This document shows positions 18,146-19,224 of a stretch of 64,000 nucleotides of DNA, one piece after another. Below the pieces are notes generated by a model. That model was not told the DNA's origin. It did not search any database and saw only the letters and a program-made list of their open reading frames with translations. This DNA is from a virus. Positions within the stretch are counted from its first letter, which is position 1, and every line of letters starts with the position of its first letter. A program made the translations under genes and the position numbers. Location: IMG/VR virus record IMGVR_UViG_3300030098_004191, positions 21,902 through 85,901 of that record, one strand, 5' to 3'.

Positions 18146-18346
18146 ATTGAGAGAGTGGGGCATCGACATAGGTTTCACCTATATGCCCAAATTTACCCTA
18201 TAGGAATCGCTTACACCTGAACCCCTACTAACACAACTCCTAACCAAAAATGGATGTATGTTGGTTTACAAGGACTTACAACAATAAGAGCGAATCGTTG
18301 ATGTACGCCTTGTGCTTTTGGGTATAGGAACCACTTATCTCTCAAC
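18146..18346 (-). ncRNA. Putative ~200-nt structured non-coding RNA (RNA 1)
   Basis: Starts about 7 nt after the -10; ends pair (TTGAGAGA..GTGG / CCACTCTCTCAA); several internal hairpins; no ORF. Confidence 0.7.
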
Positions 18347-18352
18347 TTCTAT

Positions 18353-18408
18353 AGTATAGCAGTTTTACGTCATGCTTCAAGGACGGATGTTACAGTTCTT
18401 AAGCTGGC
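18353..18408 (-). promoter_or_regulatory. Early promoter element, copy 11
   Basis: GCCAGCTTAAGAACTGTAACA..TATACT. Confidence 0.65.
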
Positions 18409-18833
18409 ACACCAGATGGAATTTCCTTCGGAACTACGTTAGTCTGAAGAACCTCTGTGAAATCCTCATTATACTTCTGATCTATGGCAAAACATTCCCA
18501 CTGATGATCTAATGTAAAGATGTAAACAAATTCTGCATCATTAGCAGGATTCTCTACATAATCATCAAAGTTTAGATCCAAACGTGGTTCAGTATTGTCT
18601 CCTCTGTCATTATAATATTGAACATGAGGTTCTACCTCATTTCTATCCCAATCTGTATCAGAATCACAGCATGAAATGTCTCCACCATCAAGTAACTCTG
18701 CAACCTTCTCTCTTGTGTTAAACTTTGCATTTAAAGTAACACCTAGCCATTGAGGATAACCATCCCAATGATGATACACAGATAGAATAGCACCATCCGC
18801 AAGTTGTAATCCAATCCTTGATCTTGTTGCCAT
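18399..18833 (-). CDS. Conserved early hypothetical protein (144 aa)
   Basis: MATRSRIG...SVYHHWDGYP.WLG..L family. Confidence 0.8.
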   Translation of the reverse strand: MATRSRIGLQLADGAILSVYHHWDGYPQWLGVTLNAKFNTREKVAELLDGGDISCCDSDTDWDRNEVEPHVQYYNDRGDNTEPRLDLNFDDYVENPANDAEFVYIFTLDHQWECFAIDQKYNEDFTEVLQTNVVPKEIPSGVPA

Positions 18834-18850
18834 TTAAAAAAAGGGGGTTA

Positions 18851-18920
18851 AAAAACACGTGGGATGTTAGTTCTTTCTTCGGTTGCGAACCGAGAGGCAC
18901 ATCCATCTCCTCGTTTTTGT
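18851..18920 (-). ncRNA. Putative ~70-nt structured RNA (RNA 4)
   Basis: AAAAACG/CGTGTTTTT, GGATGT/ACATCC, TCGGTT-CGC-AACCGA. Confidence 0.6.
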
Positions 18921-18923
18921 GTG

Positions 18924-19065
18924 TGGGACTTACAACTTCAAAACTGTCTTTTCAGATGTCTAGGACATCAGCAGTACAAGAGGTCTCCAAACATAAAGAG
19001 CAGTTTTCCACAGAATGAATCAAAGATCATCTGATTGTTGCTCACCCCTGCCTTGCGTTTGCCCA
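18924..19065 (-). ncRNA. Putative ~140-nt structured RNA (RNA 3)
   Basis: TGGG/CCCA closure, GAGCA/TGCTC, AATCAGA/TTTGATT, GATGTC-CTA-GACATC, AAAACTG/CAGTTTT. Confidence 0.6.
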
Positions 19066-19070
19066 ATGGT

Positions 19071-19160
19071 GAGAGAAACAAAAAACGGAGACAGTGCATT
19101 ACTCTTTCGGTCATGTGTCTGCTTCTGAGTCAGACTAGAAAGAAACCGTCTTTGTTTCCC
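19071..19160 (-). ncRNA. Putative ~90-nt kissing-loop RNA (RNA 2)
   Basis: GGGAAACAAAGACGG/CCGTTTTTTGTTTCTC closing stem; hairpins GTCTG/CAGAC and CAT/ATG with complementary loops ACTC/GAGT. Confidence 0.7.
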
Positions 19161-19168
19161 ATGTGCTT

Positions 19169-19224
19169 ATTATAGTGCATCAAGCAATGGATTCCACTCA
19201 ACCTGTGACTCTTTCTCAAGTGGC
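19169..19224 (-). promoter_or_regulatory. Early promoter element, copy 12 (inside the MTase 3' end)
   Basis: GCCACTTGAGAAAGAGTCACA..TATAAT. Confidence 0.7.

Follow-up and report, generated by a model that had tools for sequence, protein, structure and literature searches.

Which functional elements are encoded by two stretches of higher GC content that lack a conserved open reading frame (ORF), each lying behind a predicted early promoter in the genome of a marine virus? This question is raised by positions 18,146 to 19,224 of a 64,000-nucleotide (nt) stretch of viral DNA, referred to here as the window, which covers positions 21,902 to 85,901 of the 85.9 kb IMG/VR virus record IMGVR_UViG_3300030098_004191. 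The initial annotation of this locus described four structured RNAs, collected as promoter cassettes, and proposed that they were antitoxin mimics or decoys directed against host defences. The analysis presented here establishes that three of the modules (A1, A3 and B) are real, conserved, folded RNAs, and all four (A1, A2, A3 and B) belong to phage-only families absent from Rfam. The decoy proposal found no support, and the reading preferred here, which is given roughly an even chance of being correct, is that the two stretches are leaders acting as cis-acting 5'-untranslated region (5'-UTR) devices with a specific partner.

The flagged stretch is closest to the marine single-cell virus sequence AG-345-L05 (88%), and it is about 80% alike to the corresponding DNA of the Prochlorococcus phages P-SSM2 and P-SSM5, which are T4-like cyanomyoviruses; the window comes from a T4-like cyanomyovirus akin to P-SSM2. 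According to the ORF list, the genes around 18000-20156 are carried by the minus strand, in the order N6A DNA methylase, gap A, T4-GC66, gap B, an ORF of 37 amino acids (aa), a terminator and a promoter, and GC68/DUF7717. P-SSM2 and P-SSM5 have an identical gene order, with unannotated gaps of equal length. The GC content of the gaps is 0.41-0.44, versus 0.29-0.39 in the flanks. The description of two ORF-free, higher-GC stretches behind predicted early promoters was accurate. The gaps and the elements within them are listed below (window positions).

19169-18834, minus strand: gap A, without conserved ORF, between the N6A-methylase gene and T4-GC66
19196-19169, minus strand: predicted early promoter of leader A, read from the sequence, with a -35 box TGGAAT (19196-19191), a 16-nt spacer and a -10 box TATAAT (19174-19169)
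19160-19068, minus strand: module A1, 93 nt, with helices S1-S3 and the 3' tail UCACC
19064-18925, minus strand: module A2, 140 nt, its ends closed by GGGC/GUCC
18914-18862, minus strand: module A3, 53 nt, with a flank containing the Shine-Dalgarno (SD)-like GAGGAG, helix P1 (GGAUGU/ACAUCC) and hairpin P2 (UCGG/CCGA)
18398-18114, minus strand: gap B, without conserved ORF, between GC66 and the conserved 37-aa ORF
18380-18353, minus strand: predicted early promoter of leader B, from a promoter scan, with TTGAAG, a 16-nt spacer, TATACT and a TG before the -10 box
18345-18147, minus strand: module B, 199 nt, a three-way-junction RNA

Leader A spans 19160-18862 on the minus strand and comprises A1, A2 and A3, whereas leader B (18345-18147, minus strand) consists of one module, close to the ~200 nt initially given for it. 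The units of leader A had been put at ~90, ~140 and ~70 nt, with spacers of 3-5 nt; the first two lengths and the A1-A2 spacer (3 nt) agree with these values, but A3 is shorter and the A2-A3 spacer is ~10 nt long. Both promoters are predictions of the sigma-70 type, and the transcription starts used here are inferred from them rather than mapped. The stop codon of the methylase falls within the -10 box of the leader A promoter, the -35/-10 pair of which is kept in P-SSM2, P-SSM5 and AG-345-L05, and relatives also keep the leader B promoter element in front of B.

The case for RNA rests on comparison with relatives. The folding energy of the whole gaps, on both strands, was not significantly different from that of shuffled sequences (z -0.1 to -1.1), and thermodynamics alone would therefore miss these RNAs. 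Homologues of each unit were gathered from IMG/VR by exact motifs and analysed unit by unit. Alignment with relatives revealed near-identical blocks carrying compensatory changes, which in A1, A3 and B are strong and extend over more than 100 marine viral contigs, and the G-U wobble intermediates found in the stems agree with the gene (transcribed) strand. The picture of discrete modules, unrelated to each other in sequence and placed directly behind early promoters, is thus borne out, with folds supported by covariation for A1, A3 and B; A2 is the module for which covariation gave little (3/41 pairs). Alignments also bear out the idea that related phages combine different modules at these promoter-proximal sites: module order and nesting vary among close relatives, and modules nest in the loops of hairpins. 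The window, G000 and P-SSM2 have one copy each of A1, A3 and B, and one complete 202-kb relative has B and lacks A1 and A3. In the P-SSM2 record the clamp A1, A3 and the compact form of B are located at 55.8-56.9 kb. The pseudoknots initially suspected fared less well, as AAAACUG varies without compensation and UCGCU sits in an optional insert. Three small ORFs, of 48 aa (18968-19114), 44 aa (18211-18345) and 62 aa (18718-18906), were considered as genes and rejected, because they span module borders or inserts that are absent in relatives, and ARAGORN found 0 transfer RNA or transfer-messenger RNA genes in the window.

The fold of B was derived from 28 compact copies of ~115 nt, such as that of the cultured phage P-SSM2. 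Helix P1 joins both ends of the module, UUGAGAGA (18345-18338) pairing with UCUCUCAA (18154-18147), and is followed by P1b (GUG/CAC) and by P2, in which CCUAUA (18328-18323) pairs with UAUAGG (18202-18197). The junction is formed by P1b, P2 and P4 (GGGC/GCCC), with the joining strand J = GUAAAUUU; P3 (CCC/GGGG) and P5 (loop UGAAA) are hairpins. In this fold 94.9% of cells are paired and 15/31 pairs are changed on both sides, which none of 500 shuffles and no slid register could match; pairing at P2 holds throughout the copies, and 5/6 of its positions have changed on both sides. Between P3 and P2 lies a near-invariant bulge, UUCAGGUGUAAGCGAUUCC at 18221-18203, and when the scan was repeated with no demand for the bulge, the latter (17-19 nt, CAGGUG(U/C)AAGCGAUUCC) proved to vary at 3-4 positions only. 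P3 is the insertion site of the module, its strands lying 34-250 nt apart among copies, and in the window it carries a 94-nt cargo insert (18319-18226). A B 21-mer occurs in at least 120 viral contigs. The covariance model of B (R1) gave one match each in the window (E 6.5e-23) and in P-SSM2 (9e-35), and no match in S-SSM7; P-SSM2 and P-SSM5 are the only cultured phages with B.

The surroundings of B are less uniform than its core. B begins 5-11 nt after a -10 box in 47/93 distinct copies, lies near a start codon in a third of its copies, and is often placed between other modules rather than beside the start codon. The ORFs downstream, small and of unknown function, fall into more than 20 unrelated clusters, the largest being the acidic 37-aa ORF (29/111 copies); neither reading of the sequence nor the promoter scan revealed a promoter between B and this ORF in the window. 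Two further elements are found at or within B:

18143-18137, minus strand: U7 tract, 3 nt past B P1, read from the sequence
18309-18272, minus strand: cargo module M2, 38 nt, within the B insert

A run of at least five U residues follows P1 in 14/93 copies, including that of the window, and is not a feature of the family. As a separate observation, 18199-18227 and 18323-18351 are 72% alike as a direct repeat (the 5' strand halves of P1/P1b/P2 compared with the bulge and the 3' half of P2), which may reflect an internal duplication or an RNA pseudo-symmetry. The 3' strand of P1 was also considered as a Yfr1-like motif, since ACUCCCUCACAC (in L003, for example) is one base away from ACUCCUCACAC, the ultraconserved motif of the host small RNA Yfr1 (PMC2190773); this strand covaries, and the likeness is probably a coincidence. 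The 5' strand of such copies, GUGUGAGGGA, could pair with Yfr1, again probably by chance.

A1 behaves as a clamp at the predicted 5' end of its transcript. In S1, GGGAAACAAAGACGG (19160-19146) pairs with CCGUUUUUUGUUUCUC (19088-19073), S2 is UCUUUC/GAAAGA and S3 is GUCUG/CAGAC; the outer helix thus joins GGGAAACAAA... with ...UUUGUUUCUC. Complementarity is kept in all variant pairs (8 for S1, 15 for S2 and 6 for S3), and the S1 variants include a compensating 1-nt insertion or deletion. In 88/97 distinct copies a -10-like box precedes the clamp by 5-9 nt, and an ORF starts 13-27 nt past its CACC tail in 69/92 copies. What lies between is variable: the S3 loop (19130-19122), which is the cargo site and is empty in the window, is replaced by cargo in many copies, a fact that rules out mimicry of an anticodon loop, and the clamp interior ranges from a bare hairpin of 36-43 nt without cargo to ~150 nt of nested modules. 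S-SSM7 has a clamp holding M2 and nothing else. GC66, the gene most frequently found behind the clamp, is downstream in ~40% of copies, directly in 27 contigs and behind extra modules in 17, and many unrelated families take its place in the remaining copies. Since the same gene occurs with or without extra modules, and minimal clamps carry no cargo, the clamp is the constant element and A2 and A3 are optional. The window record, P-SSM2 and S-SSM7 have one clamp each, and a complete 202-kb relative has none.

A3 is tied to the other end of the leader, the start codon. An exact 19-mer of A3 is found in at least 59 viral contigs, in which the module is almost invariant; its internal loop is purine-rich and does not vary, and P2 covaries, with four compensated variants. 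An 11-codon upstream ORF within A3 was considered as a peptide gene and rejected because one variant has a premature stop, so that the constraint acts on the RNA and not on a peptide. A3 and the AUG are separated by 21-28 nt in 51/54 contexts, which involve at least 10 unrelated ORF families. SD-like motifs are found at 3% of the A3-adjacent ORFs versus 30% of window ORFs, and the AU content at ORF starts is 79% versus 68%. Three short elements connect A3 to GC66:

18861-18856, minus strand: self-complementary hexamer CACGUG, directly after A3
18855-18850, minus strand: U6, directly after the hexamer
18849-18834, minus strand: leader before GC66, pyrimidine- and A-rich, without SD

The hexamer following A3 is a perfect palindrome in 26/26 distinct variants, and all three of its position pairs change on both sides. 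Seven kinds were found (CACGUG, GCUAGC, CCAUGG, CUAUAG, CCUAGG, UCUAGA and GCAUGC), at loci that include L001, L006, L058, L122, L125 and L168; the kind is independent of both the A3 variant and the downstream gene, and a U-rich run comes next. The hexamer is placed exactly where the conserved A3 meets variable downstream sequence. For the CACGUG copy, the minimum-energy fold lengthens the A3 stem up to the G and U6, which gives it a terminator-like look. Pairing with the constant 5' flank was considered and rejected, as it involves 3 nt only, in one variant, and fails to explain the palindromes, and a six-base palindrome is unable to fold on itself. RNA dimerisation or a junction at the DNA level might account for this hexamer, and its constant self-complementarity makes for a sharply defined puzzle.

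A2 is highly conserved, with about 17 homologues, and, its sequence varying so little, just 3/41 pairs of its predicted fold covary. It is a member of a superfamily of modules ending in GG(G)C...UGUAAGUCC, an end motif common to M2 and many other small modules and occurring twice in the window. In AG-345-L05, A2 is placed in the other leader, after B rather than after A1. M2 is 97% identical in S-SSM7 and 95% identical in MED4-213. Separately, GAUUCGCU in M2 and AGCGAUUC in the invariant B bulge (18203-18211) are complementary at 7/8 positions, and M2 frequently co-occurs with B (before, inside or after it), yet S-SSM7 has M2 without B. Another common module, CUGCUGCAACCCCCUUUGGUAGUUUCAGGGUUGGAGGCGAUAGGAAACUACCA, is found directly after B at many loci (among them L014, L024, L055 and L063) and is absent from the window; it forms a hairpin, GGUAGUUUC/GAAACUACC, with a loop complementary to the sequence just upstream, and is a candidate H-type pseudoknot.

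None of these modules corresponds to a catalogued family. A cmscan of the whole window against the 4227 Rfam families at gathering score matched none, and nothing relevant appeared at E<=10 in 17800-19500 or, at E<=1, in eight related loci with compact forms; the families named in the initial annotation, including ToxI, abiF, manA and wcaG, were thus unmatched in that interval at E<=10 and in the compact relatives. The covariance models of the cyanophage motifs manA, wcaG, PhotoRC-II and glnA/Downstream-peptide were likewise unmatched in the window and its compact relatives, and no description of these RNAs was found in the literature. Among the closest parallels are manA (RF01745) and wcaG (RF01761), covarying RNAs of untested function that are nearly confined to marine metagenomes and T4-like cyanophages and lie in likely 5' UTRs (Weinberg et al., 2010; PMC2864571). 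The modules described here share with them conservation, covariation and a location in likely 5' UTRs of T4-like cyanophages, but match neither their sequences nor their models, have other folds, and are single-copy, placed at transcript 5' ends and endowed with nested cargo.

Parts of the stretch are present in marine metatranscriptome runs from several studies, with contigs covering all four units. There are contigs that continue from A3 for ~250 nt and enter a downstream gene, and a leader module is likewise joined to the 37-aa ORF; relatives without inserts are also represented among the contigs. These data consist of contigs only, which give no RNA ends, strand or levels and may derive from DNA in the libraries, and they were therefore counted only as evidence of presence in RNA libraries and of co-linearity with ORFs. 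In each of the four runs (four studies), summed contig depth has its peak at the B core, far above the neighbouring ORF, although such depth cannot rank regions.

What, then, might the leaders do? Of their constant elements, A1 and half of the B copies are tied to the predicted 5' end, and A3, the tail of the clamp and a third of the B copies to the start codon; the variable elements lie in loops or between the constant ones; this arrangement argues for 5'-UTR devices acting in cis. The initial annotation had held that action in cis alone on the downstream ORF would count against its proposal, and the fixed positions relative to predicted starts and start codons, together with RNA contigs joined to ORFs, do point to cis action, as far as can be inferred. 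Both stretches would then be long untranslated leaders of predicted early transcripts, made of four independently folding modules that would act on the messenger RNAs (mRNAs) carrying them. In A1, as in half of the B copies, the extreme 5' end of the transcript would be paired with nucleotides that directly precede the region of ribosome entry. Such pairing would shield this end from 5'-end-dependent ribonucleases (RNases), namely the cyanobacterial RNases E and J, and would hold a short AU-rich, SD-less start region unfolded at a constant distance, whatever the cargo in the loop. A3 would be a portable start-codon module which, with the hexamer and the U-tract, may act as an attenuator or translational operator, and the near-invariant unpaired nucleotides of B and A3 would imply a specific partner, such as a protein, the ribosome, RNA polymerase or a small ligand. 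A helix does lie within a few nt of the predicted start in most clamps (88/97) and in about half of the B copies (47/93), as in 5'-terminal stabilising hairpins.

Several observations weigh against this reading. A generic stabiliser or start device would be expected at many early genes, so that the single copy per genome, like the lack of A1 and A3 in the 202-kb relative that has B, counts against it. The conservation of most of A3, and of 17-19 nearly invariant unpaired nucleotides in B, exceeds the needs of a protective hairpin; the transcription starts are predictions; and the RNA-library contigs, which may contain DNA, give no RNA ends or levels. The far greater contig depth at the B core, compared with the ORF beside it, would also fit a stable free RNA, unfit as depth is for ranking. 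The single copy and the near-invariant unpaired nucleotides suggest that the cis-device reading is incomplete. Known leaders of this kind are the ompA-type 5' stabilising stem-loops and the T4 gene 32 leader, which has a 5' pseudoknot and an AU-rich operator. The resemblance lies in a structure near the 5' end followed by an unstructured AU-rich stretch to the start codon, at a fixed position; the leaders described here differ in conservation beyond the needs of pairing, in being present once per genome and in the variable cargo of their loops.

The single copy and the conserved unpaired nucleotides would sit better with stable RNAs acting in trans, a possibility that we regard as doubtful. 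One start would give both an abundant small RNA and a read-through mRNA, with the clamp and B serving as scaffolds for cargo that would bind factors of the host or phage, or act as a sponge for them, defence proteins perhaps included, and this would preserve the decoy idea in a broad form. Cargo modules common to different scaffolds and positions, the U-tracts after A3 and (in the window) B, and, weakly, the peak of summed depth over the B core in four studies are consistent with it, and a precedent exists in the actuatons of host cyanobacteria, in which a small RNA and an mRNA arise from one start site (PMC6596454). As in actuatons, a structured RNA heads the transcription unit and read-through gives the mRNA, but that concept was defined in host genomes, not phages, and accumulation of a small RNA is here a possibility only. 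Against action in trans, RNA contigs continue into ORFs, a U-run follows P1 in few B copies, and no target emerged: the host search, made with the exact 19-mer of the B bulge on both strands of 185,579 genomes, gave five chance-level matches, all in unrelated bacteria and none of them cyanobacterial. As for the antitoxin-mimic version, phage mimics of ToxI are known, and ToxI, AntiQ and abiF resemble the modules as small structured RNAs related to phages or defence, but every test for such a family failed: no model matched; Tandem Repeats Finder found 0 arrays in 17900-19300 even at score 30, short two-copy direct repeats being the only repeats of the region, where tandem repeats of ~34-36 nt, cut into units by the toxin, would mark that class; no toxin, HEPN, Abi or reverse-transcriptase gene was found among the neighbours with Pfam, PHROG or PADLOC; and the exact 19-mer search gave no host copy of the B motif. 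The neighbours are the DNA methylase (the only PADLOC match), DUF7717 and proteins of unknown function. It is also conceivable, if unlikely, that the A1 clamp and B are display scaffolds for swappable aptamer-like cargo (A2, M2 and the GGGC...GUAAGUCC superfamily), giving abundant early RNAs that bind host defence or RNA-decay factors in trans; the hexamer after A3 could pair such display RNAs as dimers.

Strong conservation of unpaired nucleotides is equally a mark of aptamers, and B, perhaps with A3, might be a riboswitch-like sensor that would bind a metabolite or ion indicative of the state of the host and control termination or translation of the early gene downstream. Invariant junction and bulge nucleotides with tolerated peripheral insertions are typical of aptamers, the helices covary, B is located in 5' UTRs, and manA, wcaG and glnA are known candidate riboswitches of T4-like cyanophages (PMC2864571). 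This is nonetheless improbable, as the downstream genes are many unrelated small ORFs rather than one pathway, B is often not beside a start codon, and an expression platform is not consistently evident: a U-run follows P1 in 14/93 copies, that of the window included, and the fold of A3 with CACGUG-U6 looks terminator-like. A role at the DNA level, in which module ends would be recombination handles that shuffle early cassettes, or the modules mobile hairpins, with the RNA folds secondary, would account for the differing order and nesting among close relatives, for the shared end motifs (GGGC...UGUAAGUCC) and for a palindrome exactly at the border of conserved A3 and variable sequence. We consider it very unlikely, because copy numbers per genome are low, indicating no proliferation, helices covary through G-U intermediates of the transcribed strand, and strong purifying selection acts on the loops. 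Such shuffling recalls the PeSL promoter-stem-loop cassettes of T4-type phages, which Arbiol et al. reportedly described in 2010 as simple stem-loops repeated many times per genome. Early-promoter-linked structured elements in plastic early regions and modular shuffling of small genes are common to both, but the modules described here are single-copy rather than repeated at many borders, larger and multi-helix, and covary as RNA. Small ribozymes often occur in phage DNA, and one or more modules might divide the leader into separate RNAs, either as self-cleaving ribozymes or as signals for RNase processing, as units lying back to back and a conserved B core of ribozyme-like size would allow. 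This explanation has very little probability: no Rfam ribozyme family matched, and the junction strands read unlike a hammerhead core.

Cis-acting or not, the modules matter for several reasons. Cyanomyoviruses of the P-SSM2 type rank with the most abundant Prochlorococcus viruses, and these RNA families are present in hundreds of ocean viral contigs and in the RNA libraries of several marine studies, yet have remained uncatalogued. They provide new, well-defined folds, including the ~115-nt compact form of B in the cultured P-SSM2, ready for experiments, and they are a rare example from nature of RNA modules that move between scaffolds and lie within the loops of one another. Should they regulate how stable early mRNAs are or how these are translated, they would bear on the timing of cyanophage takeover in hosts that possess few protein regulators; a cargo acting in trans would represent a new kind of viral RNA effector.

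The genes flanking the leaders are as follows.

19170-20156, minus strand: N6A DNA methylase gene, from the ORF list and a family match
18399-18833, minus strand: T4-GC66 gene, 144 aa, start codon at 18833, from the ORF list
18000-18113, minus strand: conserved acidic 37-aa ORF, T4-GC67 (PSSM2_071), 33 nt after B

GC66 corresponds to PHROG 1987, of unknown function, and has no Pfam family; the protein had no sequence match in the PDB and no named Atlas cluster, and its AlphaFold model (mean pLDDT 58.7) was not used. Its phage-only family is very large (2684 relatives at E<=1e-5) and has an invariant YHHWDGYP motif; neither a fold nor a function is known for it. Upstream, an ORF of 187 aa (20134-20697, minus strand) that matched nothing in Pfam, PHROG or PADLOC shares 23 nt with the beginning of the N6_N4 DNA methylase gene (19170-20156, minus strand). 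The cassette borders also carry small symmetrical elements: a dyad, CAGCTTAAGAACTG, at 18393-18406 (minus strand) overlaps the GC66 stop codon, and a GC-rich hairpin with a T-run (CCCTC-TTCACA-GAGGG-T6) at 17945-17990 (minus strand) lies before the GC68 promoter and overlaps its -35 region. Border dyads or hairpins with T-runs of this kind recur upstream of promoters at many loci.

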